This document shows, one piece after another, positions 5,291 to 34,721 of a stretch of 57,234 nucleotides of DNA (position 1 is the first letter of the stretch; each line of letters starts with the position of its first letter). The DNA comes from Actinomycetota bacterium (GTDB lineage Bacteria; Actinomycetota; Actinomycetes; Mycobacteriales; Jatrophihabitantaceae). Below the pieces are notes generated by a model that saw only the letters and a list, made by a program, of their open reading frames with translations, searched no databases and was not told the origin of the DNA. The DNA lies in NCBI GenBank assembly GCA_046734315.1, contig JBKPQY010000036.1, positions 1 to 57,234 of the forward strand, written 5' to 3'. The position numbers and the translations under genes were made by a program.

Positions 5291-5451
5291 CTTGTCCCCC
5301 GCTGCGCGCGACACCCCCGCCGAAATGCTGGCACTTGTCGCGTCGCGTTACCTGTGTAAGCCCTAGGAACACCACGCGCAAGCAACCGCTGACTATTCGG
5401 TCGCTACTCCGCGCCCGTTCGTGGCGTTCGTGGTGATTTGCCCGCCGGGCA

Positions 5452-5478
5452 ATGACGGACAGATGACAAGACGGTCAT
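5452..5478 (+). promoter_or_regulatory. candidate response-regulator operator: ATGACGG / ATGACAA direct repeat phased at 11 bp plus an inverted GGTCAT
   Basis: aATGACGGacagATGACAAgacGGTCATtt lies in the divergent RR-copCD intergenic region. The same half-site recurs at 7305-7344. Confidence 0.4.
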
Positions 5479-5519
5479 TTACCGGGTCGCCGCCGTGGGC
5501 CGTTCTTATCGTGACGACG

Positions 5520-7187
5520 ATGATCCGCCGTGCCGTCGCGTTCGCAGGGCTGGTGATCGCGCTGGTGTGTCTGGCGCCGCCTCGCCCGGCGGGCGCACAC
5601 GCGCTGCTCGTCCGATCGCAGCCCGCCAACGGCTCGACGGTGGCTGCCGCGCCCGGCCTGGTGCGGCTCTGGTTCAGCGAGGAGATCTCGACCGAAGTCA
5701 GTACGGCCCGTCTTGTCGACCGCTCCGGTGCCACAGTTACCGGCACGACGGTTCGTGCCGAGGCGCAGTTGCTCGAACTGCACGTGCCGGGCCTCGCGCG
5801 CGGAACCTACGGCGTCCTGTGGCGGGTGCTCGCCGAGGACGACGGCCACACCTCGAGCGGCACCGTCGTGTTCAGCGTGGGTGCGTCTACCGGGCCGCTG
5901 GTGGCGAGCTCGTCGGGGGGTTCGGCGACGTTGGACACGGCACGTCGCTGGCTGTGGCTGTGCGCGCTCGCGGGCGTGGTCGGCGGCCTCGCAGTGGCGG
6001 GCCTGGTACTGGGCCGGACCAGCGGGACGGATGTGTTCCGGCGCCGCATCCTCGCCGGCGTGGCCGGCTGTGCGGCGCTCGGCGCGATCGTCGGGGTGCT
6101 CGACGCGCGGGCCGAGGTGAGCCGGCTCGCCCCGGCGACGTTCGGCGACCTGCTGGCGTCGAGCCGGTGGGGGCATCTGTGGCTCGCGCGCGAGGCGGCA
6201 CTGCTCGTCCTCGTCCCGGTCGTCGTGACGTTTCGAGCGCGCGGCCGGCGCGGCCCGGGCCTGCTCGCTTTCGGCCTCGCGGTGGTGGTCGTCTGTATGG
6301 AGGCACTGCGCAGCCACGCCGCGACGGCGGGCCCGCCACGCGGCATCGCGATCGTCTCGGATGCCACGCACATCGTGGCCGCCTGCGTCTGGCTGGGTGC
6401 GCTGCCGGCACTCATCGTGCTGCTGCGGAACCGTGAGGTGCTGCGGGCATGCCGCGAGCGGTTCACCATGCTGGTGGCGGGCAGTGTGCTGGTCGTCGTG
6501 GTCACCGGTCTGTACAGCGCGGGGCGCCAGGTGGACTCGGTCGGCGACCTTGCCGGCACGTCCTACGGACGTCTCCTGCTGGTCAAGACCGCTCTGCTCG
6601 CGGTGGTGCTCGCCCTCGGGCTGGACAGCGCACGTCGCTGGCACACCGGGCGTACCCCGGTTGGGCGGATCGTGGCGGCCGAAGCGGCGGCGGGTGCGGC
6701 GCTGCTGATCGCGGTCGCCGTGCTGGTCGATACGCCGCCTGCGCGAGGCGGCATCAGCCACGCGGCAGGCCAGTCGCGCAGCGCGTCGGTCGCCGACCTG
6801 CTCGTCACGGTGTCGGCGGCCCCCAACCTGCCAGGCACGAACGGCGTGACGGTGCGGGTGGCCAGCTCGAGGCGCCCACCGCCGGCGCCGGTCAGCGCAG
6901 TGACCGTTCAGGGTGCGCGCCTCGCGCCGGTGGGTGCGGGCCGGTTCTTCGGAACAGTCGAGCTGCCGCGCTACGGCGCCGTCCCGCTCACGACCGTCCT
7001 GCAACGCGGCGGCGAGAGGCTCACACTCACGGTGCCGTGGCGGGTCGTCGCGGCGTCGCGGCACGGCCCTCGGCTCGCGCCGTATGTCGATGCCATCGCG
7101 GTTGCGCTACTCGCCGGCGCGACGCTCGCCGCCGCCGCATTCGCCAGGGCACGCCGGCGCAAACCGGTCGAGGAGCTGATTGGCTGA
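5520..7187 (+). CDS. copper resistance/transport protein, CopC-CopD fusion (YcnJ-like)
   Basis: Signal peptide followed by a mature N-terminus HALLVRSQPANGSTV...LWFSEEIS (CopC fold signature), then 8 or more hydrophobic helices (CopD-like). Start moved to ATG 5520 so that the ATGAC repeats stay upstream. Confidence 0.75.
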   Translation: MIRRAVAFAGLVIALVCLAPPRPAGAHALLVRSQPANGSTVAAAPGLVRLWFSEEISTEVSTARLVDRSGATVTGTTVRAEAQLLELHVPGLARGTYGVLWRVLAEDDGHTSSGTVVFSVGASTGPLVASSSGGSATLDTARRWLWLCALAGVVGGLAVAGLVLGRTSGTDVFRRRILAGVAGCAALGAIVGVLDARAEVSRLAPATFGDLLASSRWGHLWLAREAALLVLVPVVVTFRARGRRGPGLLAFGLAVVVVCMEALRSHAATAGPPRGIAIVSDATHIVAACVWLGALPALIVLLRNREVLRACRERFTMLVAGSVLVVVVTGLYSAGRQVDSVGDLAGTSYGRLLLVKTALLAVVLALGLDSARRWHTGRTPVGRIVAAEAAAGAALLIAVAVLVDTPPARGGISHAAGQSRSASVADLLVTVSAAPNLPGTNGVTVRVASSRRPPPAPVSAVTVQGARLAPVGAGRFFGTVELPRYGAVPLTTVLQRGGERLTLTVPWRVVAASRHGPRLAPYVDAIAVALLAGATLAAAAFARARRRKPVEELIG

Positions 7188-7344: not shown

Positions 7345-7408
7345 ACCGATCGGTCCGCATCCGAGCCGCGCCAAGATCACCCCAGAACGCCACGTGGGGG
7401 AGGCGGCC

Positions 7409-10400
7409 ATGCGCGCACAGCACTCGACGGGTACGACACGGCGCATCTTCACGCGACGCAGGCGCCGTCGCGCGCTCGTAGCGGGGTTCGTCACGCTCGT
7501 CGTGACGGCAACGTTCCTACCGGCGTTGCGACCGGCACTGGCCCCGCGTGCGCACGCCGCGACGTCCTGCCCGGCGGCGGGCTGCCAAGTCACCGTCAAG
7601 GGGCTGGACTTCGGCACGGGCGACCCCCTCGCGACCTACAACTTCATCGTTAACGTCGACAACACGAAGCTCCCGTCGGACCCAACGTCGCTGAGCACCG
7701 AGAGCAACAGCCCGATCGTTGCCGAAGGCGACCAGGATCAGCCCACCGTGACGCTGCCGGAAGGCCGATACCTGATCTCGATGCGTTCTCTCGACCACAA
7801 GATGTGGGGGAACTACCTGACGCTGCCCGATGCAGCGGCTGCCGACGGGACCGTGACCGTCAACATGGAGCTCACCACGCAGAGCGCGGATCATCCGCTG
7901 CCGCTGGGGAAGATCCGCGTCTTCGTCTTCAACGACAACGCCTGGACGAACGGCGCCCCCGACACCGAGGAGCCCGGTCTCGGCGGGTTCCAGGTCGGGC
8001 TCGAGGAGCAGACCGGGAGCGCCGTCACGGTCGACTACAACAACAACCCGCTCTGCGGTGGCATTTGCAAGACCTCCAGCGCCGCCGCGACTCTCGGCTT
8101 CGTCGAGATCAACAACCTGGGTCCGGCGACTTACTTCATCGACGTGCACCCACCGGCCGGGCCGTGTAACAGCGATCCCGACAGCCAGTGGTACCAAACG
8201 AGCACGATCGACGGCGGACTGCAACTGATGGCGCCGACGGAAGAGGGCGCCGACGGGACCGGTGCGCCCGGCGAGCAGCTCTGGGAGCCTCCGAACATCC
8301 GCACCGCCTACTGGTTCGGCTTCGTGTGCGCGCCGCATCCCTTCGCGAATGCCGGAACCGGGGAGATCACCGGCACCGCGCGCAACTGGGTGGAGTGGGC
8401 CCCGTACACGACCGGGACGTTTACCGACCCGGTCGAGAACCCCTTCGTGGCGCTGTCGGACGCCTCGACCGACCAGACCGTCTTCGTCGGCCAGGGCGAC
8501 GCGGCCGGCAACTTCGACATCCAGAACGTCCCGGCGGGTGACTACAACCTCGCTGTGTGGGACGAGCAGCTCAGCTACATCATGCGGTTCAAGCCCGTCC
8601 ACATCGATCCCGGTCAAACCGTCGACATGAACGATGTCGGGGACGACGGCAGCGTCGGGCTCGGCGTCTCGCGCTGGTTCGCGTGGCTGGGCGGCAAGGT
8701 CTACAAGGACCTGAACCGCAACGGTCAGTACGACGCGGGCGTCGACGCGCCGATCCCGAACACCGACATGGACCAGCGCTGGCGGGACGGGTCGATCAAG
8801 GAGTCGACGTTCACCGACGCGAACGGAGATTACCTGTACCCCACCGCAGAGGGCGGAGCGCTCGGCCGCTGGTTCATCAACGAGCAGGGCTTCGCGCGCT
8901 TCTCGGCCGACCCGGGTGCCTCCGTGCACGACGAGCGGAACCCGGATCTCGTGACGCCTTCGTGCCTCGTCAACGGCACGCCGGTCGACCCTTGTATCCC
9001 GAACTCGCAGGGTGGCGGCCTGCTGATGAACCAGTCGTTGCTCGAGGGCCACCGGGCCACGGTGGACTGGGGCAAGCACGATTACCCCGCGGGGACGCCC
9101 GGCCAGATCGTCGGCATCACCTACTTCGCGACGACCCGTAACGAGTTCGACGCACGGTTCCAGGCGCACGAGGACTACGAGGCGGCGATCCCCGACGTGA
9201 CCGTCTACCTGGAGAGCCCGGGCCCGGACGGAGTCCCAAACACCGACGACGACTTCATCGTGAACGCCTACGTCACCGACCACTGGCAGCAGCCCAACGC
9301 AAGTCAGGACCCGGTCGATCCGGCCAACCCCAGCTTCTCGCAGAGCTGCAACCCGATCCTGGACGCCAGCGGGAATGACGTCACGGGCCAGTTCAACCCG
9401 GATATCGGGCCGAACTGCCTCGAGGTCCCCCTGGCCGGGCAGCACACCAAGGAAGGCGCCTTCGACGGCGGTTACGCCTTCGCGAACTACTGCCCAGACG
9501 GCTACGACCTCGCCACCGACGCATGCACCGACGGTTCTGCACCGGACGACCACCCGCTCGTGGCGGGCAACTACATCGTCCACGCGATCATGCCGAAGGA
9601 CACCAACGACAGTCGCCCGTGCAACCCGGGCGGAGCCGAACCGCAGCGCGTCACCGAGGCGCACGGCAGCGTCCCGGGCGGCGGGAACGGCTGCCTGTAC
9701 CGGATCGTGCGCGAGGAGGACGTCAACGTCGACCTGGGCAACCAGTTCGCGCCGCAGATCCCGCCTCCTCCGTGCAACGGCGACAACCACCTGATCGACA
9801 AGTCGACGCTGACTCCGCGCAGCGTCTACTTCCCGGTGGCCGACGCGCACGCGCCGCTGTGTGACAAGCACCTCGTGGTGCTGCAGAACCAGCAGAACGC
9901 GAACGCCGACTTCTTCATGATGACCAACTTCCGAACCGACCCGAACGGCGAGGATCCCACCGACACCCGGACCGGTGACGTCGAGGAACCCGGTCGGGTC
10001 GTCGGCCAGGTCTTCAACGACATCTACTTTGACCGCAACCAGATGTCCAACTGGTACGGCGAGCCCCGTCCGATCGGAAACATTCCGGTCGGGATCTACG
10101 CCCGCGTCGACACGGTCTGCGCAGGCGGCGGCACCAACTGCGCTACGCCGAACGTCAATGCGCCGTTCACCCGCGACAACTGGCGGCTGATCAAGACGGT
10201 CAACACGAGCATTGACGGCGCTTACGAAGCACTACTGCCCTCGACCGAGACGCTCAACTGTCCGATTCCGCAGGGACCTTGCCCCGGCATGTACATCGCC
10301 GTCGTGGACGACCCGGGCACCAAGGCCAACCCGAACCCGAACTACAACCCGAACCTGCTGACGGCGAACACGCCGTTCGAGGTGTGGCCAGGGCTCACGG

Positions 10401-12784
10401 ACCAGCTCGACACACCCGTCGACCCGATCTCCGGAACTGCATGCCAGGACCCGGCCGGAGCAACCGGCGGGATCGCACCGGATCCGTCCGACCCCGCGCG
10501 GCCGGAGCTACTGCAGGTTTCCACCCCGGTGGTGGGCCCGACCGGTGGCCGTCAAGTCACGATCCAGGGTGACTTCATCGGTATCGCTGGTGCGACCGGG
10601 GCAACGGGCGGCCGGATCACGCTGACCGACGTTCGGACCGGCGCAGTCACCACCTTGACCAGAGCCAACGGCGGAATAGCCAGCTGGACTCCGGGAACCG
10701 CGAGCACCCCGGACACGATCGTGATCAATGTGCCGGCCATCTCGGCACTGTTCCCGCCAGGCCCTAAGCAGCTCGCCATCATCACGGCGAACACCAATCC
10801 CGGCGGCGGTGGAGTCTCCAGCGTCAACGGCATCACCCTCCATGTGCGGGGCACGGTTGGCACCGTCACCTACAACCCGCCGGTCGTGAACGTTGCTCCG
10901 CCGCCGCCGGTTGGGACGAACCCGACCGCGCTACAGGACGCGATCAACGGCGCGGCTGCTGGCAGCCTGCTGGTTCTGTCGCCTGGCACCTACAACGAGA
11001 ACGTGCTGGTGTGGAAGCCGCTGAAGATCCAGGGTCTCGGCCCCGGCGGCATCATCGGCGCTCACGAGTTCCAAGGCCGCGACCCGGAGGACCCGCGGTT
11101 CAACATCAAGGGCAGCATCATCGACGGCCGCTTCTTCCAGCAGAACTTCGCGGGCTTCGACGCCACGGTGGCGGCCCACGCGCCGTACGTGCTACCCAAC
11201 TTCACGAGTGGTGCGGCGAGCACGGTGCTTCGGGGTGCTGACCTGACCGTCGTCGCTAAGAGCACCACGGCTTACGACGTGAGCGCGGTGCCCTCCGGAG
11301 ATAGCGCCGGGTTCGGTGGGGCCCGCATCGACGGCCTCGGCCTCATGACCGGGCACGGCGACGGGGCCGGCGGCATCCAACTGCAGGCCAGCGTCAACAA
11401 CATGCAAATGACGAACAATGTGCTCGAGAACAACGGCGGAGTCTTCGCCGGTGGCATCGGCGTCGGCCAACCGTTCGTTCACGGCAGCCACAACTTCAAC
11501 GTGCGCATCGCCAACGATCGGCTGATCGGCAACGGTGGGCTGACGTCGTCCGGCGGCCTCGGGATCTTCTACGGATCCAACAACTACGACGTGGCCAAAA
11601 ACATCATCTGCTCGAACTTCGGCGTCGAGTATGGTGGCGGCCTTTCGCACATCGGGCTCAGCCCGAACGGGAAGATCCACGACAACAAGATCTACTACAA
11701 CGATGCCGTCGACAGCGGCGGCGGCGTCTCGATCCAGTCCGAGCTCCCGGTCCCGTCCAACTGCGATCCCGTCACCGGCACGGTGGCGACGTGCTTGGGC
11801 ACGGGCACCGGCAACGTCGACATCGACCGCAACCTGATCCAGAGCAACGCCTCCGGTGACGACGGCGGCGGCATCTTCGTAGCCAACGCACTCACAGTGC
11901 CGATCAACATGCGCAACAACATGATCGTGAACAACCTGGCCGCGGATCTCGGCGGCGCCGTCATGCTCGATGACTCGTCGAACACCCGCGTCGTCAACAA
12001 CACGGTCGCCAACAACGTCACGACGGGCTCGTCCGAGTCGTCGCTGGTCGGTGTCCCGCACGGCGCCGGTCTGACCAGTGAGGCAAACGAACCGCTGTTC
12101 CAGGCGACGCTGCCGGCCGGCGCGCGGGACTTCTCGAACCCGGTGGCACTGTTCAACAACATCTTCTGGAACAACGACGCGATGACGCTCGACCAGTTCG
12201 GGCCAGGGGCGGCGCTTGTCGACAACGGCTTCATCGACTTCGAGATCCACGGCACGACGAACGCCGCTGACACGTTCACCCCGCGGTACTCGACCCTGAC
12301 CAACGGCAACATCCTCGGACCGGACGGGTTGCAGCACCCGGTGCCGGCAGGCCAGGGCAACCGGATTGGTGAAGATCCACTGTTCGTCGCACCGTTCGTG
12401 AACGAACTCACGGTCGCCGGATCGCGCCTCGATCCGCAGCAAGCGGCAGTGACGATCACTGGCCAGGACCCGCCGGTCGGGCTGACGGGCGACTACCACC
12501 TGACTGCAGCATCGCCCGCAGTCGACCGCGGCGTGCGTTGCTCGAACACACCCGTCCCGGCGAACCTGGCGGCCTGCGCGGCGACCGCCGTCCCCGCGCC
12601 GTCGGGCACCAACGCTGACTACGACGGGCAGTTCCGGCCGCAGCTGCGCACCCTGCGTATCACGACGCCGTGGGATCTTGGCGCCGACGAGCTGCCCGGC
12701 GTCCCGGTACTAACGCTGTCCGGTGCGGCCGCGACGCAACTAGCACTCCCATCCACACCACCCGCCCGAGCTCGGCTGGCGTGA
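7409..12784 (+). CDS. giant secreted multidomain protein: Arg-rich signal, CarboxypepD_reg/SdrD-B-like beta-sandwich repeats, IPT/TIG-like domain, right-handed parallel beta-helix (PbH1/NosD-like) region
   Basis: RBS GGGGGAGG then ATG 7409. Signal TRRIFTRRRRRRALVAGFVTLVVTATFL...AHA. GNFDIQNVPAGDYNLAVWD and KVYKDLNRNGQYDAGVDAPIPNTDM...TDANGDYLYP (SdrD-B-like). PELLQVSTPVVGPTGGRQVTIQGDF (IPT-like, ~10500-10860). Repeated N-x-I/V-x-x-N...GGG turns, for example NNVLENNGGVFAGGIGVG, IHDNKIYYNDAVDSGGGVSIQ, IDRNLIQSNASGDDGGGIFV (~11330-12180). Confidence 0.75.
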   Translation: MRAQHSTGTTRRIFTRRRRRRALVAGFVTLVVTATFLPALRPALAPRAHAATSCPAAGCQVTVKGLDFGTGDPLATYNFIVNVDNTKLPSDPTSLSTESNSPIVAEGDQDQPTVTLPEGRYLISMRSLDHKMWGNYLTLPDAAAADGTVTVNMELTTQSADHPLPLGKIRVFVFNDNAWTNGAPDTEEPGLGGFQVGLEEQTGSAVTVDYNNNPLCGGICKTSSAAATLGFVEINNLGPATYFIDVHPPAGPCNSDPDSQWYQTSTIDGGLQLMAPTEEGADGTGAPGEQLWEPPNIRTAYWFGFVCAPHPFANAGTGEITGTARNWVEWAPYTTGTFTDPVENPFVALSDASTDQTVFVGQGDAAGNFDIQNVPAGDYNLAVWDEQLSYIMRFKPVHIDPGQTVDMNDVGDDGSVGLGVSRWFAWLGGKVYKDLNRNGQYDAGVDAPIPNTDMDQRWRDGSIKESTFTDANGDYLYPTAEGGALGRWFINEQGFARFSADPGASVHDERNPDLVTPSCLVNGTPVDPCIPNSQGGGLLMNQSLLEGHRATVDWGKHDYPAGTPGQIVGITYFATTRNEFDARFQAHEDYEAAIPDVTVYLESPGPDGVPNTDDDFIVNAYVTDHWQQPNASQDPVDPANPSFSQSCNPILDASGNDVTGQFNPDIGPNCLEVPLAGQHTKEGAFDGGYAFANYCPDGYDLATDACTDGSAPDDHPLVAGNYIVHAIMPKDTNDSRPCNPGGAEPQRVTEAHGSVPGGGNGCLYRIVREEDVNVDLGNQFAPQIPPPPCNGDNHLIDKSTLTPRSVYFPVADAHAPLCDKHLVVLQNQQNANADFFMMTNFRTDPNGEDPTDTRTGDVEEPGRVVGQVFNDIYFDRNQMSNWYGEPRPIGNIPVGIYARVDTVCAGGGTNCATPNVNAPFTRDNWRLIKTVNTSIDGAYEALLPSTETLNCPIPQGPCPGMYIAVVDDPGTKANPNPNYNPNLLTANTPFEVWPGLTDQLDTPVDPISGTACQDPAGATGGIAPDPSDPARPELLQVSTPVVGPTGGRQVTIQGDFIGIAGATGATGGRITLTDVRTGAVTTLTRANGGIASWTPGTASTPDTIVINVPAISALFPPGPKQLAIITANTNPGGGGVSSVNGITLHVRGTVGTVTYNPPVVNVAPPPPVGTNPTALQDAINGAAAGSLLVLSPGTYNENVLVWKPLKIQGLGPGGIIGAHEFQGRDPEDPRFNIKGSIIDGRFFQQNFAGFDATVAAHAPYVLPNFTSGAASTVLRGADLTVVAKSTTAYDVSAVPSGDSAGFGGARIDGLGLMTGHGDGAGGIQLQASVNNMQMTNNVLENNGGVFAGGIGVGQPFVHGSHNFNVRIANDRLIGNGGLTSSGGLGIFYGSNNYDVAKNIICSNFGVEYGGGLSHIGLSPNGKIHDNKIYYNDAVDSGGGVSIQSELPVPSNCDPVTGTVATCLGTGTGNVDIDRNLIQSNASGDDGGGIFVANALTVPINMRNNMIVNNLAADLGGAVMLDDSSNTRVVNNTVANNVTTGSSESSLVGVPHGAGLTSEANEPLFQATLPAGARDFSNPVALFNNIFWNNDAMTLDQFGPGAALVDNGFIDFEIHGTTNAADTFTPRYSTLTNGNILGPDGLQHPVPAGQGNRIGEDPLFVAPFVNELTVAGSRLDPQQAAVTITGQDPPVGLTGDYHLTAASPAVDRGVRCSNTPVPANLAACAATAVPAPSGTNADYDGQFRPQLRTLRITTPWDLGADELPGVPVLTLSGAAATQLALPSTPPARARLA

Positions 12785-12821: not shown

Positions 12822-14144
12822 ATGACCAGTCAACCAGGCATCGCCCGCCGCGACTTCTTCAAGGCTGCGGGGCTGGGTGCCGCCGGCGCGGTAGCCGTGG
12901 GGGCCGCAATGCGGTCCGGGCTGTTGCTTCCCGCGTCGGCGGCCGGCACCACCGCACTCTCGCTGGTCGCCTCGGACGGGTACATGAGCCTGCCGGGTCG
13001 GGAGGGCGATCCCGTCTACATCTTCGGCTTCGTCCCGGTCGACCCGAGCCTGCCCGTCGACCAGCTCGTGGCGACGTACAAGGGCCACACGAAGCACACC
13101 GCGCCGCATCTGAACTTCCGGCAGGACGACGACATCAAGATCACGCTGACGAACCTGGGGCTGGTGCAACGGCCGGACCTGACCGACTCGCACACGATCC
13201 ACTGGCACGGTTTCGACGTCCCGTCGCCACTCAATGACGGCGTGCCCGAGGTGTCCATCGCGGTACCCATCGGCAAGCAGGTCACCTACTTCTACCGCCC
13301 GCACCGCGAGGGCACGTACATGTACCACTGCCACTTCGAGGACGTCGAACACGTGCAGATGGGCATGACCGGGATCGTGTTCGTGCGCCCGCTACAGGAC
13401 GTCAACGGGGCGGGTGTCGGCGTGCCGGTCGCTCGCCAGGAGGGCGGAGCGTCAACCGCACCGCTCGGCTACGCCTACAACGACGGCAACGGATCTACCG
13501 CGTACGACCGGCACTTCGCCATTCTGCTCAACGAGGTATGGAAGAACTTCCACGACGGCGACCGCGACATTCAAGAGTCCATCGCCACGGACTACAACCC
13601 GCAGTGGTTCACGCTGAACGGGCGGTGCTATCCGCAGACTGTGTTGCCGAACGACAGCCCCAGCCTGCCGGAGGCAATGCGGATCGGCACCCCGAACGCC
13701 AACTATGACAACGCCATCGACTACAGCCAGCCCAACTCGGCGCTCGTCCAGGTGAACCCAGGCGATCGCGTCCTGTTGCGCCTGGCCAACCTCGGGTATC
13801 AGCAGCACTCGATGCAACTGCCAGGCATACCCATGAAGGTCGTCGGACAAGATGCGTCCTGGCTGGGCAAAGACGGCGTCGACAAGACGTACTTGACGAA
13901 CACGCTCTACATCGGCCCCGGCGAGGCCCGCGACGTGCTGTTCACCGCGCCGGCTCACGACCCGAATCGCCCATCGGGATCGGACACCAAGGGCGCGTAC
14001 AACGTCTATCGGTTCAAGAACCGAGACTGGCGGAGACTCTCCAACTTCGGAGCACCGCCCGGCCCCGGCGGAATGCAAACGGAAGTTCGCGTGTACGCGA
14101 ACCCGCTTCCCGCCCAGAGTGACGTGAGCCAGACCTATGTCTGA
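12822..14144 (+). CDS. multicopper-oxidase-like protein A: Tat signal, two cupredoxin domains, type-1 site plus half a trinuclear site in domain 1 only
   Basis: RBS AAGGGGGA. Twin-arginine motif ARRDFFKAAGLGAAG. HTIHWHG (H124/H127/H129) and YMYHCHFEDVEHVQMGM (H169-C170-H171, H177, M180/M182). The equivalent positions of domain 2 read QQHSMQLPG and GPGGMQTEV, so the ligands are lost there. Confidence 0.8.
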   Translation: MTSQPGIARRDFFKAAGLGAAGAVAVGAAMRSGLLLPASAAGTTALSLVASDGYMSLPGREGDPVYIFGFVPVDPSLPVDQLVATYKGHTKHTAPHLNFRQDDDIKITLTNLGLVQRPDLTDSHTIHWHGFDVPSPLNDGVPEVSIAVPIGKQVTYFYRPHREGTYMYHCHFEDVEHVQMGMTGIVFVRPLQDVNGAGVGVPVARQEGGASTAPLGYAYNDGNGSTAYDRHFAILLNEVWKNFHDGDRDIQESIATDYNPQWFTLNGRCYPQTVLPNDSPSLPEAMRIGTPNANYDNAIDYSQPNSALVQVNPGDRVLLRLANLGYQQHSMQLPGIPMKVVGQDASWLGKDGVDKTYLTNTLYIGPGEARDVLFTAPAHDPNRPSGSDTKGAYNVYRFKNRDWRRLSNFGAPPGPGGMQTEVRVYANPLPAQSDVSQTYV

Positions 14145-16185
14145 GCAGGCGACCGCGCGCCGCGGAAAGAAGGGCACAATGACGCAGAAGACCTGGCGCC
14201 TGGGGGCGGTGCTGGCGCTCGCGGCCGGCTCGCTGTTCGCCGTGTCGGTGCGCGGGTCGGCGCTACCTGCCGGGGCTCCCAAGGTGGGAATGGTCTGCAC
14301 GCCCGGCTCGGTCGCCGGCAGTACGCACACGTTCAACCTGGAGACGAAGACCGGCTATATCGAGACCCCCGACGGCAACAGCGTCTTCATGTGGAGCTAC
14401 GACGACCCGGGAGTGGACAACGGTCACTTCCAGAGCCCTGGCCCGGTCCTGTGCGCTACGCAGGGACAGACGATTGTCGTCAACCTGACGAACAACCTGT
14501 CGGAGCCTGTGTCCGTGGTCTTCCCAGGGCAGCAGGACGTGACGGCGAGCGGAGATACGGCCGGCCTGCTGACGACGGAGGCTGGCGCGAGCGGCGGCAC
14601 GGCCAGCTACAGCTTCACCGCGTCGAGCCCGGGCACGTACCTGTACGAGAGCGGCTCGGATATGGCTAAGCAGGTCGAGATGGGCCTCTACGGTGCCCTG
14701 GTCATCCGGCCGAGTGCGGGCCCCAACTTTGCCTACGGCACATCCACGCAGTTCAACCCGAGCCACGAGTACCTAGCGCTGCTCGCCGACATCGATCCGT
14801 TCCTGCATCACGCCGTGGAGACCGGCACCACGTACGACTTCAACTCGCGCGACAACCGGTACTTCACGATCAACGGGCGCAGCTTCCCCGACACGATCCA
14901 GGACAACGGGTCCGGATTGCTGCCGAACCAGCCGTACGGAGCGCTGGTGCGCATCCAACCGAACACGGCGGCCAACCCGTTGCCGGGCCTGATCCGGATG
15001 GTCAATGCCGGCGTGGACAACCACCCGTTCCACCCGCACGGCAACCACACCACGGAGATCGCACAGGACGGCCGGTTGCTACTGAGCCCCGGTGGGGCGT
15101 CGGCGGGGACCGAGCATTTCGGCGAGACGATCGGCGCCGGGCAGACCGAGGACTTCCTGCTGCGCTGGGATGACCAGGACCACTGGGATCCCGGCACCAA
15201 CCCGCTGCCGGTCCCGCCGCCGAACTACCGCGACGTGACATTCAAGGACGGCAACACCTGGTACAGCGGCAGCCCGTACCTCGGCTACAAGGGAACACTG
15301 CCTGCCGGAACGACGACGCAGAACATCTGCGGCGAGTGGTATTTCCCGTGGCACAGCCACGCATTGAACGAGTTCACGAACTTCGACGAGGGCTTCGGCG
15401 GGATGGGAACGCTGCTACGCGTCGATCCGCCTGGTGGCTGCTTCACCGCCGCCGCGTCGACGGTGATCGTCGGCGGGGTGCTCAAGGGCGGCTCGGTGAC
15501 CGCGCTGGCTGCCTCCGACGCCGCCTACTACCAGGTCAACCCGCGCACCACGACCCGCCCGAGTGCGACAACCGCAGGCCAGCTGAGCATCACCGTTGCA
15601 TCGGCGGCCGGCTTCCCGACGAGCGGGAATTACTTCATCCGCATTGACAACGAGGTCTTGCAGGTCACCGGTGGGCAGGGCACGACGACGTGGACGGTTG
15701 CACGTGGGCAGCTCGGAACCCTGGCCGCGAGTCACGCGAGCGGTGCAACCATTTCTGCGCTGGCCAACGACTGGTACGGGTCGTTCACCGGCGTGAAGGC
15801 CGGTTCGACGAACCTCAAGGTCACCTACCAGGGCAAGAACTGCGGCAACACAGCCGGCACGGGGTGCACGGCGATCGCGGCGAACCTCCCGCAGCAGACG
15901 GTCAAGATTTGCGACTGGACGATCTCCGGCGCGAGTGGCTGTGCCACCGCAACGTCGAACGGTTGGGTGACGTTGCCGGCGCCACCGGTCCAGCCGCGGG
16001 CTGTGGGCTCGACCGACGTGAGCTCCACCTGGACCCTTGCCGGTTCGGGCAGCCATTACATCGGCACGGGGACGTACAACGGCCAGGTCCGGGTACTCAT
16101 CCACACCCAGCGCTGGACACCGAGTAATCCGACGACCTTCTCGACGTGGGGGAACGTGCTGGCCCTCACCTACGACGCGCCGTGA
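14137..16185 (+). CDS. multicopper-oxidase-like protein B: ligand-free domain 1, half trinuclear site without type-1 Cys in domain 2, plus a ~250-aa C-terminal extension
   Basis: 8-nt overlap with the upstream gene. Signal peptide. Domain 1 reads VSVVFPGQ / YLYESGSD with no His ligands. Domain 2 has NHPFHPHGNH (H296/H299/H301) and FPWHSHALNEF (H406-S407-H408). An alternative start is ATG 14179. Confidence 0.75.
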   Translation: MSEQATARRGKKGTMTQKTWRLGAVLALAAGSLFAVSVRGSALPAGAPKVGMVCTPGSVAGSTHTFNLETKTGYIETPDGNSVFMWSYDDPGVDNGHFQSPGPVLCATQGQTIVVNLTNNLSEPVSVVFPGQQDVTASGDTAGLLTTEAGASGGTASYSFTASSPGTYLYESGSDMAKQVEMGLYGALVIRPSAGPNFAYGTSTQFNPSHEYLALLADIDPFLHHAVETGTTYDFNSRDNRYFTINGRSFPDTIQDNGSGLLPNQPYGALVRIQPNTAANPLPGLIRMVNAGVDNHPFHPHGNHTTEIAQDGRLLLSPGGASAGTEHFGETIGAGQTEDFLLRWDDQDHWDPGTNPLPVPPPNYRDVTFKDGNTWYSGSPYLGYKGTLPAGTTTQNICGEWYFPWHSHALNEFTNFDEGFGGMGTLLRVDPPGGCFTAAASTVIVGGVLKGGSVTALAASDAAYYQVNPRTTTRPSATTAGQLSITVASAAGFPTSGNYFIRIDNEVLQVTGGQGTTTWTVARGQLGTLAASHASGATISALANDWYGSFTGVKAGSTNLKVTYQGKNCGNTAGTGCTAIAANLPQQTVKICDWTISGASGCATATSNGWVTLPAPPVQPRAVGSTDVSSTWTLAGSGSHYIGTGTYNGQVRVLIHTQRWTPSNPTTFSTWGNVLALTYDAP

Positions 16186-16211
16186 GCAGCGAGGCGAAGG
16201 AGACAGTGGCG

Positions 16212-17204
16212 ATGAGCAAATTTGCAGCCATGAAGCCGCGGTTGCCTCGACTGACCAGACCGCTGTTCGTGCTGGGCATGATCTTCGCCGGCGTCGTCGC
16301 GGCCGGTTCGACGGCTTCGGCGGCCCCGGTCACGATCAACCTGTGCGCCGAGCCGGGCACTGCCACGCTCACCGGCGCCGTCACGGCGCCGATCTGGGGC
16401 TTCGCCGTTGCGGCGACGCCCGGCGCCTGCGGGGCGACGACGGCCAGCCTGCCCGGGCCGCAGTTGGTGGTGAACGAAGGCGACACGGTGACGGTCAACA
16501 TCAGCAATGGGTTGCCCGCCGGACACACGCTGACGTTCGAGATCCCTGGCATCACCCTCGACGCGGGTCCGACCGACGTCCCCGCCGGCACATCCGGAAT
16601 TGTGTCGTTCACCGCCAGCGCGCCTGGCACGTACCTCTACCAGGCCGGCGGCGGCGAGGGGCGGCAGGCGGCAATGGGACTGGCCGGTGCGCTGCTCGTC
16701 CGCTCCGCGACCCCGGGCCAGGCTTACGACAGCGCAACGACGGCCTACGACGCGGAGGCCACCGTGGTGCTCGGAGCGGTGGACCCGAACTTCAACGCGG
16801 CACCCGACACCTTCGAGATGTACAACTACACCGCAACGTATTGGCTGATCAACGGCAAGGCCTACCCCGACACCGCGGGGATCACCGCGGCAGCAGCGCA
16901 GCGGCTGCTACTCCGTTACGTCAATGCGGGCTTCGACAACACGTCGATGGCACTGCTCGGCATGCACGAGCACGTGGTCGCCCGGGACGCCCACCTGCTG
17001 AACAACCCGTTCGACGCGGCTGCCGAGACGATCCCAGCCGGTGCCACTGAAGACGCCATCGCGACGATACCGGCGGGTGCGGCTCCCAGCCCGCACGGAT
17101 TCCCCCTGTTCAACAGGCAACTTCACCTCACGAACGGGGACCAGACAGGCACCGGGCCGACGCCGGCCACCGGTGGCGGGATGTTGACCTTCATCCATCC
17201 GTAG
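16212..17204 (+). CDS. multicopper-oxidase-like protein C: two cupredoxin-like domains with all copper ligands lost (probable pseudo-enzyme subunit)
   Basis: RBS AAGGAG (16196-16201) then ATG 16212. Signal peptide ...GSTASAAP. It aligns to protein B (VNAGFDNTSMALLGMHEHV vs VNAGVDNHPFHPHGNHT; PGTYLYQAGG vs PGTYLYESGS; GGGMLTF vs FGGMGTL) but lacks the HxH and HCH motifs. Confidence 0.7.
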   Translation: MSKFAAMKPRLPRLTRPLFVLGMIFAGVVAAGSTASAAPVTINLCAEPGTATLTGAVTAPIWGFAVAATPGACGATTASLPGPQLVVNEGDTVTVNISNGLPAGHTLTFEIPGITLDAGPTDVPAGTSGIVSFTASAPGTYLYQAGGGEGRQAAMGLAGALLVRSATPGQAYDSATTAYDAEATVVLGAVDPNFNAAPDTFEMYNYTATYWLINGKAYPDTAGITAAAAQRLLLRYVNAGFDNTSMALLGMHEHVVARDAHLLNNPFDAAAETIPAGATEDAIATIPAGAAPSPHGFPLFNRQLHLTNGDQTGTGPTPATGGGMLTFIHP

Positions 17205-17212: not shown

Positions 17213-17755
17213 ATGAGCGGACGAGCAACCCTTGAGCCCGCGCCGGCGGTCCCCCCACCGCCGCGCGCGGGGTACCTCACCTCGCGCCGGATTCGGCTGC
17301 TCGGCGCCATCACGGGCGTTGTCGTCGCAGGGCTGATCACGTCGCTCGTGCTCTGGCTGACCCGCGACAAGCCGCCGGACCGTGCCGAGCTGAAGGTACC
17401 CGCATCGTGGGCCCGTCCCGTGGTCAGCGCGGCGGGCCTCGCCGACCGCAGCGGAGTGAAGATCACCCAGGTCGCGGTCACCGGGGACGGAGGACTCGTC
17501 GACCTTCGCTTCCAGGTGATCGACCCGGACAAGGCGAACGCATTGCATGACGCCGCAGCACCGCCGGCGGTCGTGGACGAGCGCACCGGGCTGGTCGTGC
17601 ACGACCTGCTCATGAGCCACTCGCACAGCGGCGCGTTCAAGCCCGGGGTCACGTATTACTACGTGTTCAACAACCCGGGCAACATCGTGAACCGCGGCGC
17701 GCGGGTCGTCGTGCTCCTCGGCAACGCGCAAGTCGAGCACGTGAAGGTGCGATGA
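17213..17755 (+). CDS. small N-terminally membrane-anchored protein of unknown function with a MSHSHSG His/Met patch
   Basis: RBS AGGGGG. One TM helix (LLGAITGVVVAGLITSLVLWL), then a ~130-aa beta-rich ectodomain. It sits 8 nt after gene C and shares an ATGA overlap with the protease gene. Confidence 0.6.
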   Translation: MSGRATLEPAPAVPPPPRAGYLTSRRIRLLGAITGVVVAGLITSLVLWLTRDKPPDRAELKVPASWARPVVSAAGLADRSGVKITQVAVTGDGGLVDLRFQVIDPDKANALHDAAAPPAVVDERTGLVVHDLLMSHSHSGAFKPGVTYYYVFNNPGNIVNRGARVVVLLGNAQVEHVKVR

Positions 17756-19950
17756 AGCGTCTCGCGCTGGTGCTGGCACTCTTGGGTGCCGGCCTCGTAG
17801 CGCCGGTCGCGGCGTCGGCCCGGCCGGCGTTTGTCGACGTCGTCGTGGTGCTCAAGTCGCAGGCGAACGTGGCCGCCGTGCAAGCGCCGACGCGTGCGGC
17901 CCGACTGGCTGGCGTCGAGCGGGCGCTGCGCGATCACGCGGCCCGGACCCAACAGGGCGTGCTTGACCTTCTCGCGCAACGCCCGGGCTCCGTCGCCGCC
18001 GTCACCCCGCTGTGGATCGTGAACGCCGTCGAGGTCAAGGCGACGCCGCACGTCATTCGCGAGGTGGCCGCCCGGCCCGAGGTGGCCGCTGTGCAACCCA
18101 ACGCCACGATCCAGGCTCCGGCGGCCGTGACGAGCAGCGCGGCCGAGCCGAACCTCGCGAAGGTGAACGCCCCGGCCATGTGGGACCTGGGCTACCGCGG
18201 TCAGGGCATCGTGGTCGCGAGCATGGACACCGGCGTGGACGCGAGCCATCCGGACCTGGCTGCGAGCTGGCGAGGCGGCACGAACAGCTGGTACGACCCG
18301 AACGGCCAGCACGCGACGCCCACCGACGTCAACGGGCACGGCACCCAGACGATGGGCGTAATGGTGGGTGGGTCCGCGGGCGGCACCTCGATCGGCATGG
18401 CGCCGGACGCGAAGTGGATCGCCGTCAAGATGTTCAACGACCGCGGCCAGGCGACGACGACCGGCATCCACCAGGGATTCCAGTGGCTGCTCGATCCCGA
18501 CGGCGACCCGTCGACGCCGGACGCGCCGAACGTCGTCAACGACTCGTGGACGATGTCGAGCGCCAGCTGCGCCCTCGACTTCCAGCTCGACCTGCGCAGC
18601 CTGCGCGCCGCGGGCATCCTGCCCGTGTTCGCGGCCGGCAACTACGGGCCGACACCGGGCACAGTGCTGAGCCCGGCCAATCTCCCCGAGGCGTTCGCCG
18701 TCGGTGGCACCGACAACGCCGACGCGATCTACCCGTACAGCAGCCGGGGACCGTCGTCGTGCGCCGGCGCGACCGCTCCTGCGCTCACCGCGCCGGCCGT
18801 CGACCTCCGCACCAGCGACCTCTACGGCGGGTACGTGACCGAGACGGGAACCTCGATGGCCGCACCGCACGTGTCGGGCGCGCTTGCTCTTCTGCTCGGC
18901 GCGGTGCCCCGTCTTTCGGCCGACCAGCAGGCGGCGGCGCTGGAGGGCAGTGCCGTCGATCTGGGCGCGGCCGGCGTCGACGCCGACTTCGGCTACGGGC
19001 GGCTGGACGTGCTCGCGGCGTACCAGCGACTCGCGACCGCGCCCGACTACACGGTCGGCGTCGCCCCGTCGTCCGCGACCGTCGCCGCCGGCGGCACCGC
19101 GTCGTACACCGTCACGGTGACCGGCGTGAACGGCTTCGCCGGCGACGTCAGCCTGTCGGTGGGCGGGCTGCCGGACTCGGTCGGCGCGGCGGCGTTCAGC
19201 CCGGCTGTAGTTTCCGGTGCGGGAACGTCGACCCTCACGATCACGACCGCCGCGAGCGCGCCGCCCGGCAGCTATCCGCTGACGATCACCGGCACCAGCG
19301 GCTCGACGACGCACACAGCGACGGCCACGCTCGTCGTGCCGGCACCACCGGACTTCGCACTGTCCGCGGCACCGTCGGCGCAGACCATCAACGCCGGCAC
19401 CGTCGCGACGTACACCGTGTCGGTCGGGTCGTTGAACGGCTTCACCGGCGACGTCGCGCTGTCGCTCGGCGGACTGTCAGCGTCGGTCGGCACGGCCACG
19501 TTCACCCCGGCCACGGTAACGACTGCGGGCACGTCGCAGCTGAGGATCACGACCGCCACCACGGCACCCGGCGGCACCTATCAGCTCACCGTGGCGGGCA
19601 CCAGCGGCTCGATCACCCACACGGTGCCGTTGAGCCTCAGCGTGCGAGCCCGCGACTTCACCCTGTCGGCCGGCCCGTCGTCGATAACGGTCACCCGTGG
19701 TCAGACCGCATCCTACAGTGTGGCTGTAGGGTCGGTGGGCGGCTTCACCGGCAACGTGACGTTGACCGTGAGCGGCGTGCCGAGCGGCTCGATCGTGTCG
19801 TGGTCGGCCAATCCGCTCGCAGCGCCCGGCAGCTCGACGCTGCGCATCCGCACCACCGGCTCGACGCTGCGCGGGACGTTCACCGTCAAGGTGACCGGTA
19901 AGAGCGGCACATTGGTGCACCAGTCGACGGTGACGCTGATCGTGCGTTAG
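17752..19950 (+). CDS. secreted S8 (subtilisin-family) serine peptidase with an I9-like propeptide and three C-terminal ~100-aa Ig-like repeats
   Basis: Signal peptide. Catalytic triad contexts VASMDTGVD (D159), NGHGTQT (H196), GTSMAAPHVSG (S368). Three tandem repeats begin DYTVGV (aa 432), DFALSA (aa 534) and DFTLSA (aa 635). Confidence 0.85.
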   Translation: MKRLALVLALLGAGLVAPVAASARPAFVDVVVVLKSQANVAAVQAPTRAARLAGVERALRDHAARTQQGVLDLLAQRPGSVAAVTPLWIVNAVEVKATPHVIREVAARPEVAAVQPNATIQAPAAVTSSAAEPNLAKVNAPAMWDLGYRGQGIVVASMDTGVDASHPDLAASWRGGTNSWYDPNGQHATPTDVNGHGTQTMGVMVGGSAGGTSIGMAPDAKWIAVKMFNDRGQATTTGIHQGFQWLLDPDGDPSTPDAPNVVNDSWTMSSASCALDFQLDLRSLRAAGILPVFAAGNYGPTPGTVLSPANLPEAFAVGGTDNADAIYPYSSRGPSSCAGATAPALTAPAVDLRTSDLYGGYVTETGTSMAAPHVSGALALLLGAVPRLSADQQAAALEGSAVDLGAAGVDADFGYGRLDVLAAYQRLATAPDYTVGVAPSSATVAAGGTASYTVTVTGVNGFAGDVSLSVGGLPDSVGAAAFSPAVVSGAGTSTLTITTAASAPPGSYPLTITGTSGSTTHTATATLVVPAPPDFALSAAPSAQTINAGTVATYTVSVGSLNGFTGDVALSLGGLSASVGTATFTPATVTTAGTSQLRITTATTAPGGTYQLTVAGTSGSITHTVPLSLSVRARDFTLSAGPSSITVTRGQTASYSVAVGSVGGFTGNVTLTVSGVPSGSIVSWSANPLAAPGSSTLRIRTTGSTLRGTFTVKVTGKSGTLVHQSTVTLIVR

Positions 19951-19967
19951 CCGAGCGACTATTCGGA

Positions 19968-20930
19968 TCAGCGCACGCTGCCGCCCGGCTTGAGCCGCCC
20001 GGGTGGCATCGGGGGAGCGGCCAGCGGGTCGCCTGCCCCGGCGACGGCGCCGAATCGCGTGCCGGTCATCCACTGCTCGCGCGCCGCGGCGACCTCGTCG
20101 CCGGAGCGGGCGACGAAGTTCCACCACATCACGATCTGCTCGGCGAACGGCTCGCCACCGAGCAGCAGCGCACGTGCGCCGGTCGGCGTGGAAAGCCGCA
20201 GGTCACGCCGGGCCGCGCCCAGATAGAGCATCGCACCGGGCGTGAGCGGCACGCCGTCCACGTCGACCTGACCTGACGCGACCAGCACGGCGTGCTCGAA
20301 GTCGGGCTCGAGCGGCAACAACGCCTCGGCTCCCGGGTCGAGGCCGATGTCGGCGCCGACGATCGGCGAGTACGCCTGCCCGGGCGAGGTGGCGCCGGCC
20401 AGCTCGCCCATGATCACCGTCGCGGACAAGCCCGTAGCGGTGAGCCGCGGCAGTGTCGCGTGGTGCGCCCACGCCGGGGCGACGTCGCGGGCGGAGTCGG
20501 GCAGCGCCACCCACAGCTGGACGCCGTGTAGCAGCGCGGGATGCGGCACGGGCGACTGCTCAGCGTGCGCGATGCCGTGCCCGGACGTCATGAGCCCGAG
20601 CTCCCCGGGACGGATCAGCCGGTCGCTGCCGAGGCTGTCGCGGTGGTGCACCTCGCCGGTGAGCAGCCAGCTCACCGTCTGCAAGCCCATGTGCGGATGC
20701 GGCGGCACCTGCATCCCCGGCCCGTTGGCGATGTCGTCCGGACCGTAGTGGTCGACGAAGCACCATGGACCGACCAGCCGGCGCCCGAGATTAGGTAGCA
20801 GCCGGCGTACCTGCGTGCTTTCACCGAGCAGCACCTCGCGGCCGGCGAACACCTCATGCACCGGTGCCGCCGCGACGCCCGCCCGGCCGCCGCAGACGCT
20901 CAGATCCGGCGTGCGGTCGAGATTGCTCAC
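19968..20930 (-). CDS. pirin-family (bicupin) protein
   Basis: HPHMGLQTVSWLLTGEVHHRDSLGS cupin metal motif. GTGA start/stop overlap with the upstream B3/4 gene. Confidence 0.8.
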   Translation of the reverse strand: MSNLDRTPDLSVCGGRAGVAAAPVHEVFAGREVLLGESTQVRRLLPNLGRRLVGPWCFVDHYGPDDIANGPGMQVPPHPHMGLQTVSWLLTGEVHHRDSLGSDRLIRPGELGLMTSGHGIAHAEQSPVPHPALLHGVQLWVALPDSARDVAPAWAHHATLPRLTATGLSATVIMGELAGATSPGQAYSPIVGADIGLDPGAEALLPLEPDFEHAVLVASGQVDVDGVPLTPGAMLYLGAARRDLRLSTPTGARALLLGGEPFAEQIVMWWNFVARSGDEVAAAREQWMTGTRFGAVAGAGDPLAAPPMPPGRLKPGGSVR

Positions 20931-21595
20931 CCTGCCAACCCTAGAACCGTGACGGCCTTCGCGCGCGGGGCGAGCAGGGCCGCCAGATCGCCGGCCGCGG
21001 CGTCCACCGTGGCGCCGTGCGCATCGTCGACAGCCTCCAGCACGGCGAGTACGCGCCGCGAGTCAGCGGTGACCTTTGTCCGATCGGCGTCGCGGTGGTT
21101 CCAGTGGCGGGTCAGCACCCCCACGGCGTCTGCGTAGACCACCTCGCCCTGGTGCGGTTCCTCGACGGTGTCCGGCTCGCCGAGCGGCGTAAACACATCG
21201 CCGGACCGGGCGAAGCGCACCACGATCTGGCCGTCGACACGGTCGAGGTCGAACGCGCCCGCCGGGACGCCGTGCGTGACCGAGACCAGATTGTACGAGT
21301 CGACGAACGGGCTGATGCGCGGCAACCGTCCGGAGCGGCCGAGCCGCCGGGTCAGGGCGTCGACGCTGGGCCGCTGCCGGCGCGGGTTCGTCCCGAAGCG
21401 GCGGTACGCGGTATGCCAGCTGGCGATGCGCGGATCGTCGGCGCCGATAGGCGTCCCGGTCCGCTCGATCGTGGCGATGCGATCGTCGACATCTGGCCAG
21501 CGGCCCCGGTTGTTCAGGCCCTCGACATGGACGCCGACGATGAAAAGCCCGGGGAACGCGGCTCGTACGTCGTCTGCGACGGCGAGGAGGCCCAC
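20927..21595 (-). CDS. B3/4 (tRNA-binding-like) domain protein
   Basis: PSVDALTRRLGRSGRLPRISPFVDSYNLVSVTHGVPAGAFDLDRV, typical of stand-alone PheT B3/4-domain proteins. Confidence 0.65.
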   Translation of the reverse strand: MGLLAVADDVRAAFPGLFIVGVHVEGLNNRGRWPDVDDRIATIERTGTPIGADDPRIASWHTAYRRFGTNPRRQRPSVDALTRRLGRSGRLPRISPFVDSYNLVSVTHGVPAGAFDLDRVDGQIVVRFARSGDVFTPLGEPDTVEEPHQGEVVYADAVGVLTRHWNHRDADRTKVTADSRRVLAVLEAVDDAHGATVDAAAGDLAALLAPRAKAVTVLGLAG

Positions 21596-21603
21596 CCGGT
21601 TAG

Positions 21604-23954
<2,351 letters not shown>

Positions 23955-34697: not shown

Positions 34698-34721
34698 AGC
34701 GCGGACATTACGCTGATCCGC

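Follow-up and report, generated by a model that had tools for sequence, protein, structure and literature searches.

Three adjacent two-cupredoxin-domain genes with complementary copper-ligand sets suggest a heteromeric multicopper oxidase in Actinomycetota and Chloroflexota

The DNA analysed here, hereafter the window, is a stretch of 57,234 nucleotides of high-GC sequence (approximately 70% G+C) from an Actinomycetota bacterium of the Jatrophihabitantaceae, and its forward strand carries three adjacent genes, A, B and C, with products of the multicopper oxidase (MCO) superfamily. Gene A (12822-14144, + strand) encodes a two-cupredoxin protein of 440 aa, predicted to be exported by twin-arginine translocation (Tat), that is matched by the Pfam families Cu-oxidase_3, Cu-oxidase_2 and Cu-oxidase; gene B (14137-16185, + strand) encodes a protein of 682 aa with a Cu-oxidase_3 match in domain 1; and gene C (16212-17204, + strand) encodes a two-cupredoxin protein of 330 aa, predicted to be Sec-exported, which likewise matches Cu-oxidase_3 in its domain 1 and has no copper ligands. 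Significant Pfam matches place the trio in the MCO superfamily, those of B and C to Cu-oxidase_3 lying above the gathering score. All three open reading frames (ORFs) are present in the ORF listing of the window at the positions given in a first-pass annotation of this DNA. Translation of B is more likely to start at the ATG at 14179 than at 14137, because the Shine-Dalgarno sequence GGAAAGAAGGG precedes the ATG at 14179, which lies 35 nt past the stop of A. The trio sits in a longer run of genes on the same strand in which neighbouring genes overlap or are separated by gaps of no more than 37 nt, with Shine-Dalgarno sequences before A, B and C. Terminator-like sites between the genes of this run were not found; the single weak match (18870-18882) lies inside an S8 protease gene downstream, and such matches are fewer than in shuffled sequences.

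Profile-profile alignment indicates that A, B and C are paralogous two-cupredoxin-domain proteins that align column for column, with their motifs in equivalent columns. B and C are the closest pair among the three (hhalign probability 100%, E=1e-38, 35% identity), and the alignment of A with B has a probability of 99.3%. After its domain 2, B continues into a beta-rich C-terminal extension of approximately 240 aa, for which sequence searches gave neither a Pfam nor a PDB match.

The potential copper ligands are distributed very unequally over the three proteins. We take the residues of A and B to have the roles of their counterparts in classical MCO motifs, as ligands either of the type 1 (T1) copper or of the trinuclear cluster (TNC). 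In domain 1 of A, the motif HTIHWHG (13191-13211, + strand), conserved in 79/79 orthologues, supplies H124 to the T1 site and H127 and H129 to the TNC, and the motif HCHFEDVEHVQMGM (13326-13367, + strand) supplies H169 and H171 to the TNC and C170, H177 and M182 to the T1 site, and also contains M180 and the acidic residues E173, D174 and E176. Domain 2 of A reads QQHSMQLPG and GPGGMQTEV at the ligand columns and has no second HxH. The arrangement in B is the reverse: domain 1 is ligand-free (VSVVFPGQ and YLYESGSD at the ligand columns), and domain 2 carries HPFHPHG (15022-15042, + strand), with H299 and H301 as TNC ligands and H296 as a vestigial T1-position histidine (57 H and 18 Y among orthologues), together with the HSH of a WHSH motif (15352-15360, + strand), in which the TNC ligands H406 and H408 flank S407. 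C reads FDNTSMALLGMHEH and FPLFNRQLH at these columns, with no HxH at any ligand position. The correspondence is evident in the alignment, where HTIHWHG of A stands over SVVFPGQ of B, YHCHFEDVEHVQMGM of A over YESGSDMAKQVEMGL of B and YQAGGGEGRQAAMGL of C, and NHPFHPHG of B over QQHSMQLPG of A and DNTSMALLG of C.

The trio as a whole would thus have one T1 site, formed by H124, C170, H177 and M182 of A domain 1 with none elsewhere, and one set of eight TNC histidines, H127, H129, H169 and H171 of A and H299, H301, H406 and H408 of B. In the MCO superfamily a single polypeptide or a homo-oligomer supplies the T1 site and all eight TNC histidines, and neither A nor B nor C does so. The first-pass annotation had described this distribution, and a translation check found every motif and residue number that it quoted to be correct. 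Its account of A (a full T1 site and four TNC histidines in domain 1, a ligand-free domain 2), of B (the remaining four TNC histidines and no T1 site in domain 2, a ligand-free domain 1) and of C (ligand-free, aligning with B over both domains) stands, as does its deduction that no single chain could build a TNC and that A domain 1 and B domain 2 together supply exactly one T1 site and eight histidines, these complementary sets being invariant in orthologues and kept across lineages.

Two details were read differently in that annotation. It had treated the HSH of B as a T1 site in which the cysteine is replaced by serine. HSH is an ordinary H-x-H second motif of a TNC-only domain, WYHSH being the H-x-H motif of classical MCOs, and the two-domain oxidases 2ZWN and 3G5W read IHAMHSHG and VHAIHTHG in domain 2, the same H-x2-H-x-H first motif as B domain 2; judged from these motifs, the HSH of B is a normal TNC-contributing motif and not a degraded T1 site. 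It had also considered the HCH-x5-H spacing of A to be unusually long, but this spacing is normal, because 2ZWN and 3G5W have it too (HCHVNVNEH).

Relatives of A were sought by scanning one genome per species, which found at least 473, and the best 80 loci were analysed, their ORFs being classified by BLASTP against the window proteins. The resulting ortholog alignments contain 79 A, 76 B and 68 C sequences, with identities down to approximately 45%. The ligands hold throughout: H124, H127, H129, H169, C170, H177, M180 and M182 of A are invariant in the 79 orthologues, H171 is present in 78/79, and H299, H301, H406, S407 and H408 of B are invariant in the 76. No histidine or cysteine reaches 90% conservation among the 68 C orthologues, and neither A domain 2 nor B domain 1 has a conserved HxH in these alignments, so that the possibility, raised at first pass, of ligand motifs at shifted positions found no counterpart in A, B or C. 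Each pseudo-site motif is in turn strongly conserved and particular to its subunit, as S..FPGQ and Y.Y.SG, which do not vary in B domain 1, illustrate. Positions conserved at 90% or more number 118/440 in A, 120/682 in B and 53/330 in C, C being the least conserved. An invariant histidine opens domain 2 at an equivalent position in A (H244, 13551-13553) and B (H224, 14806-14808), where C has an asparagine.

The 80 loci come from Cellulomonas, Micromonospora, Kribbella, Actinoplanes, Dactylosporangium, Solirubrobacter and Gaiellales, and also from many Chloroflexota, one Binatia metagenome-assembled genome (MAG) and one Sphingomonadaceae MAG, and homologues of A, B and C each number in the thousands in metagenomes and cultured Actinomycetota. 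An exhaustive search of 1.84 billion representatives returned 227 A-type clusters at E <= 1e-30; among the best 150 of these representatives, 123 carry both domain 1 motifs, and a second HxxHxHG motif occurs in one anomalous sequence only. The complementary ligand pattern is also present in three distant clusters (L085-L087), in which A and B are 37-39% and C approximately 30% identical to the window proteins, and so spans Actinomycetota, Chloroflexota and a further lineage, probably Gram-negative, in which A is part of a fusion protein described below. The pattern recurs in the orthologues of all three subunits far more consistently than chance would allow, and it is not one of gene decay. 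No NCBIfam model scores above its cut-off for A, B or C, and database labels of their homologues go no further than 'multicopper oxidase domain-containing protein' or 'FtsP/CotA-like'.

The three genes also travel together. In each of the 68 loci that have sufficient flank, A is followed by B, C and a small gene, always in this order and on one strand, so that the co-occurrence in fixed order, which had been suggested as a check at first pass, is borne out, and singly occurring homologues, which had been named there as an observation that would speak against a complex, are absent from the loci examined. Two subfamilies can be distinguished. In the first, to which the window belongs, B has the C-terminal extension (580-710 aa in total) and C is short (approximately 330 aa); in the second (loci L042-L084), B is short (approximately 450 aa) and C carries 300-700 aa of Big_13 immunoglobulin (Ig)-like repeats. 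Both subfamilies are found in one genome, that of Micromonospora sp. NPDC004551 (L012 and L069). BLAST found no significant homology between the B extension of the first clade and the C extension of the second. That an extension alternates between B and C is suggestive only, and would be allowed by equivalent positions of the two proteins in one complex. Split B or C genes in three loci (L043, L046 and L078) are probably assembly errors, and an apparent B-C fusion in a long-read MAG (L044, 9865-14508) was rejected as a frameshift, as residues 635-682 of B are encoded in a different frame and C still has a signal peptide of its own.

In two-domain oxidase trimers each cluster is formed where domain 1 of one chain meets domain 2 of the next. 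Applied to the trio, this geometry would place a single TNC at the A-B interface, built from domain 1 of A and domain 2 of B, and we consider it very probable that A and B share one trinuclear cluster. One A, one B and one C would then close a six-domain ring of 1:1:1 stoichiometry, as expected from the two-domain trimers, with two copper-free pseudo-interfaces, one between B domain 1 and C domain 2 and the other between C domain 1 and A domain 2. It is reasonably likely, on the analogy with these trimers, that the three proteins are subunits of one obligately heteromeric two-domain MCO in the form of such a full A-B-C ring. The trio would have originated by triplication of the gene for a type C two-domain oxidase followed by complementary loss of copper sites.

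The best PDB matches of A, over both domains, are the type C two-domain oxidases 2ZWN (mgLAC) and 3G5W (the blue copper oxidase of Nitrosomonas europaea). The B family profile matches both domains of 3G5W and 2ZWN, its domain 2 aligning to theirs, and the PDB matches of C span both domains of NirK, 3G5W and 2ZWN. Like the proposed complex, type C oxidases have two cupredoxin domains per chain and an inter-chain cluster, and their motifs recur in the trio: a T1 site in domain 1 with HCH-x5-H-x4-M (in A only), H-x2-H-x-H in domain 1, and H-x2-H-x-H with H-x-H in domain 2. In contrast to the trio, however, one type C chain carries all twelve ligands, and the homotrimer has three T1 sites and three clusters; in the trio the ligands are spread over two chains, the third chain has none, and only one centre is possible per ring. 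Type C chains have four TNC histidines in each of their two domains, which no chain of the trio has; as the complete set of ligands is never found on one chain, the trio does not strictly belong to the type C family. Type B laccases, such as SLAC of Streptomyces, are also two-domain, trimeric and Tat-exported, with an inter-subunit cluster, and the B profile weakly matches two of them (3TAS and 4GY4), but they differ from the trio in having the T1 site in domain 2 and a complete ligand set in each chain of the homotrimer. The 'heterotrimer' of 9CCK was rejected as a precedent, being a proteolytic ααα′ form of one gene product and not a complex of paralogues. The three-domain CopA/PcoA/CueO family does not accommodate A either: its model TIGR01480 is the best NCBIfam match of A, with 55 bits against a cut-off of 479.

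Rings of six cupredoxin domains are found in ceruloplasmin, which has a single TNC and copper-free pseudo-interfaces, and in factor VIIIa, a heterotrimer of the two-cupredoxin units A1, A2 and A3. Each of these is encoded by a single gene, unlike the three genes of the bacterial trio; the chains of factor VIIIa arise by proteolysis and it is not an oxidase, and ceruloplasmin has three T1 sites in alternate domains, where the trio has one, in A domain 1. The ligand count of the trio is compatible with a single TNC in a six-domain ring, the ring itself being deduced, and the six domains lie not in one polypeptide but in three ORFs, each with its own signal peptide. The trio is best seen not as ceruloplasmin-type, because it has neither one chain nor three T1 sites, but as something that would work like a ceruloplasmin-style single-centre ring made from three gene products. 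The suggestion at first pass that it is a 'living intermediate' towards ceruloplasmin is not supported: the trio looks derived, and a parallel derived solution is favoured over an ancestor because of its type C ancestry, the closeness of B and C and its one T1 site.

A precedent for C is FtsP/SufI, a bacterial MCO-fold relative without any copper ligand, although this protein, unlike C, has three domains, is monomeric, functions in cell division and has no ligand-bearing paralogues encoded beside it. Hetero-oligomeric MCOs have been described, in the Mnx complex (MnxG with MnxE3F3) and in fungal heterodimers of a laccase with a small subunit (POXA3/NLAC) (PMC5622069, PMC10443355). In these complexes a complete MCO catalytic subunit has small non-MCO partners, and no copper site is known to be split between paralogues. 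The iodide-oxidising extracellular MCO IOX purifies as a complex of IoxA and IoxC and is encoded with Sco-family copper chaperones (PMC9415286), and SCO1/SenC is likewise found near two of the fusion-type clusters (L085 and L087); IoxA, however, has all four copper-binding regions and is a complete enzyme, and no complementary ligand split is reported for IOX (PMC9415286).

The three subunits differ in how they are likely to be exported. A carries a Tat signal of the S/T-R-R-x-F-L-K type, RRDFFK in the window and RR-D-F-L-K in the family, with R9, R10 and F12 invariant. B and C lack a conserved motif of this kind: no twin arginine is conserved in B, where the window has W-R, and the signal of C is of Sec type, with cleavage at ASA|AP. 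The T1 ligand C170 is the only conserved cysteine of A, whereas B has two conserved cysteine pairs, C54/C106 and C398/C435, and C has the pair C45/C73, kept within its clade. Because signal types and cysteine pairs differ between A and B/C, the data fit folding of A in the cytoplasm and of B and C outside. It is likely that A would leave the cell folded, via Tat, and B and C, whose signal peptides are taken to be of Sec type, via Sec; the ring would then come together, and the cluster at its interface receive copper, only beyond the membrane.

The trio is part of a larger set of genes. Directly upstream of A lies a giant gene (7394-12784, + strand) for a secreted protein of 1796 aa, and a gene for a giant protein of approximately 1800 aa occupies this position in all 73 loci with enough upstream flank. 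Pfam and NCBIfam matches indicate N-terminal beta-sandwich repeats (SdrD_B, CarboxypepD_reg-like) and a C-terminal right-handed beta-helix (NosD-like); 269 positions, among them 9 cysteines, are conserved at 90% or more, and a PDB sequence search gave no match. Directly 3' of C is the gene for a small membrane-anchored protein (17213-17755, + strand, 180 aa), which begins with a membrane helix, is without annotation in Pfam, NCBIfam or PDB, and is also present in the fusion-type clusters L085 and L087. It has a semi-conserved LLM-x-H-x-H-x-G motif, which in clade 1 ends in (S/T)-G (HDLLMSHSHSG in the window) and reads ALMKQGH in clade 2, and on this motif, a putative copper-binding site, it may be an assembly or copper-delivery factor. 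The first-pass annotation had recognised the A-B-C set, which is borne out, but had missed that the trio belongs to an invariant module of the giant gene, A, B, C and the small gene, with copper genes alongside.

The link between A and the giant protein extends to gene fusion. An A module is fused to the C-terminus of the giant protein in at least 15 near-full-length representatives, or in 24 of the best 150 A representatives when shorter proteins with a C-terminal A module are counted; these 24 long representatives have 900-2800 aa, with the A module at the extreme C-terminus. Examples are P0400, P0417, P0432, P0472 and P0500, from a group in which fusion proteins reach 2000-2800 aa; in P0417 (2457 aa) approximately 1600 residues match the giant protein and are followed by A at 39% identity. 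At the fusion loci (L085:10001-17374, L087:10001-16936, L086:1186-8757) the genes downstream of the fusion gene are one of B type, with HP(F/Y)HHH(G/A) and WHSH, one of C type, without HxH, and one for a homologue of the small protein. Such giant::A fusion proteins argue for a physical coupling between subunit A and the giant beta-helix protein, and the complex would be attached to this protein in the unfused systems also. Genes for SCO1/SenC, NosL and an ATP-binding cassette (ABC) transporter of MacB/FtsX type flank the fusion-type clusters (L087:5582-9248, 21503-22087; L085:9032-9652). These flanking genes, together with weak NosD matches of the beta-helix in the window, resemble the NosDFYL machinery of copper-site maturation.

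Further upstream, the window has a CopC-CopD fusion gene (5421-7187, + strand; Pfam CopC 5.6e-20 and CopD 2.8e-12, with NCBIfam CopC and CopD in agreement), which joins a copper-binding domain to a membrane copper transporter, and an OmpR-type two-component system on the opposite strand, consisting of a response regulator (4625-5314, - strand; Pfam Response_reg and Trans_reg_C) and a sensor histidine kinase (3589-4713, - strand; Pfam HisKA and HATPase_c); both precede the giant gene. Flanking genes were counted in the 55 loci with at least 9 kb on both sides, as neighbours within 10 kb: CopC-CopD homologues occur in 48/55, regulator homologues in 39/55 and kinase homologues in 38/55. The adjacent CopC-CopD fusion and OmpR-type regulator and kinase may correspond to the CopC/CopD/CopRS context of cop/pco systems, but the regulator scores below its family cut-off, and these genes could serve metallation instead. 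On the other side, a gene for a subtilisin-like S8 serine protease with Ig-like C-terminal repeats (17752-19950, + strand; Pfam Peptidase_S8 3.5e-50) starts within the stop of the small gene, and such a protease lies near the trio in 40/55 loci. It may process the oxidase or the giant protein; its best NCBIfam matches, though weak, are to mycosin and dentilisin PrtP, two proteases that operate in surface complexes.

The role of the complex is the least certain step of this proposal. The acidic residues E173, D174 and E176 of A are invariant and lie within the T1 loop between Cys170 and His177 (13335-13349, residues 172-176), where 2ZWN and 3G5W carry VNVNE. Metallo-oxidases typically have an acidic patch next to the T1 histidine, and the acidic T1 loop of A may be a site for a cation substrate. 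Because of the copper-gene neighbourhood and this acidic patch, we favour a cell-surface metallo-oxidase of Cu(I), perhaps of Fe(II) or Mn(II), tied to copper homeostasis, in which a substrate at this patch, next to the T1 site, would give up electrons that are passed on to O2 at the cluster. Metallation would probably be helped by copper-handling neighbours: CopC-CopD in the window, Sco and NosL in other clusters, and the small MxHxH protein perhaps as well. The giant beta-helix/Ig-repeat protein could instead present a polymeric or mineral substrate. We lean slightly towards a previously undescribed class, a widespread five-gene module (giant, A, B, C, small) of soil Actinomycetota, Chloroflexota and some Gram-negative lineages that would encode a surface oxidase, an obligate A-B-C heterotrimer with one T1 site, a split cluster and a conserved pseudo-enzyme subunit, tethered to the giant protein, metallated outside the cell after export by two routes, and forming an unfused counterpart of the ceruloplasmin/factor VIII ring.

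Several observations weigh against this proposal, in its structural or its functional part. The membership of C in the ring is argued from co-occurrence, paralogy and ring geometry only. AF2 monomer models of B and C, each from a low-diversity alignment of 30 sequences, are confident in domain 1 only and poor in domain 2 (pLDDT 51 and 47), and Foldseek searches with them gave only generic MCO/NirK domain 1 matches, and nothing for the C-terminal domain of B, because the models are confident solely in domain 1. No natural A-B, B-C or A-B-C fusion was found, A-B and A-B-C fusions being absent among the best 150 A representatives. As to function, the best NCBIfam match of the response regulator, TIGR01387 (the heavy-metal CusR/CopR/SilR family), scores 188 bits where the cut-off is 279; a Met-rich segment of the kind that cuprous oxidases typically have was not noticed, no systematic scan having been made; and CopCD, Sco and NosL may serve only to metallate the enzyme rather than in copper detoxification.

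Other explanations were considered for the same data. It is conceivable, but rather unlikely, that A and B share the TNC as a heterodimer or other A-B oligomer and that C stands outside the ring as a copper-free adaptor to the giant protein, the cell wall or a substrate. The ligands directly imply complementarity of A and B only, C is the least conserved subunit, and the long Ig-like tails of C in one clade are typical of adhesins and adaptors. C is, however, present in all 68 loci, keeps the full two-domain MCO fold and aligns to B over both domains, and the alternation of the accessory tail between B and C is as expected of equivalent ring positions; moreover, we know of no closed MCO architecture of four cupredoxin domains. 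The tight operon, which argues for fixed co-production, and the conservation of subunit-specific pseudo-site motifs, which argues for specific partner interfaces, make it improbable that assemblies vary in stoichiometry (A2B, AB2, ABC) or are larger, with C as a regulatory 'filler' tuning the number of active centres, even though the paralogues share a fold and probably have similar interfaces.

The three proteins might also act separately, A as a blue-copper carrier or NirK-like enzyme, B as a copper-binding protein or chaperone via its four histidines, and C in a structural role. Copper-free MCO-fold proteins with other roles do exist, as FtsP/SufI illustrates, and NirK, chains of which are among the PDB matches, makes catalytic copper from fewer histidines; but A keeps four TNC histidines in the exact MCO pattern and not that of NirK, B has precisely the four that A lacks and nothing in its own domain 1 to partner them, and the genes are never apart in the loci examined, so that we regard separate action as highly improbable. 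Decay of duplicated genes, or a sequencing or annotation artefact of the contig, would explain the bare absence of ligands and nothing more, and is scarcely credible for a pattern that recurs in approximately 80 independent genomes and thousands of metagenomic proteins, in intact ORFs of 45-90% identity; conservation in orthologous loci led us to discard pseudogenes or artefact as the source of the missing ligands.

To our knowledge, the O2-reducing copper cluster of all MCOs described to date comes from a single gene product, acting by itself or as a homotrimer. The first-pass annotation had known of no MCO with the architecture of the trio, and full-text literature searches, beyond the reach of which lie most subscription journals, found no match to it and no description of a heteromeric two-domain MCO of paralogues, of a split trinuclear cluster or of this gene cluster. 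If the A-B-C ring is correct, a cluster split over two paralogues with a copper-free third closing the ring would be a new quaternary solution, and gene fusion would not be needed for triplication followed by the loss of superfluous sites, a route that has been put forward to explain how ceruloplasmin and the clotting factors arose from trimeric two-domain oxidases. It would also raise the question of how an interface copper cluster is built outside the cell while its subunits exit separately by Tat and Sec. The module is common in soil metagenomes and may matter for the cycling of copper and other metals or for polymer oxidation, and its cultured hosts, Cellulomonas, Micromonospora, Kribbella, Actinoplanes and Dactylosporangium, make the trio testable.

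In Cellulomonas sp. McL0617 (L001) the whole cluster, with its two-component system and CopCD, is bordered by an IS110 transposase on one side and a phage-type integrase on the other (1-709 and 19916-20947). This hints that the cluster is a mobile island, and mobility of the cluster could explain its patchy distribution across phyla. The rest of the window (31271-39437 and 43572-54802) looks ordinary and chromosome-like, with genes for a squalene/phytoene synthase, a polyprenyl synthetase, an amine-oxidase-type desaturase, a sulfite/nitrite reductase and a MoxR-DUF58-TgpA transglutaminase triad.

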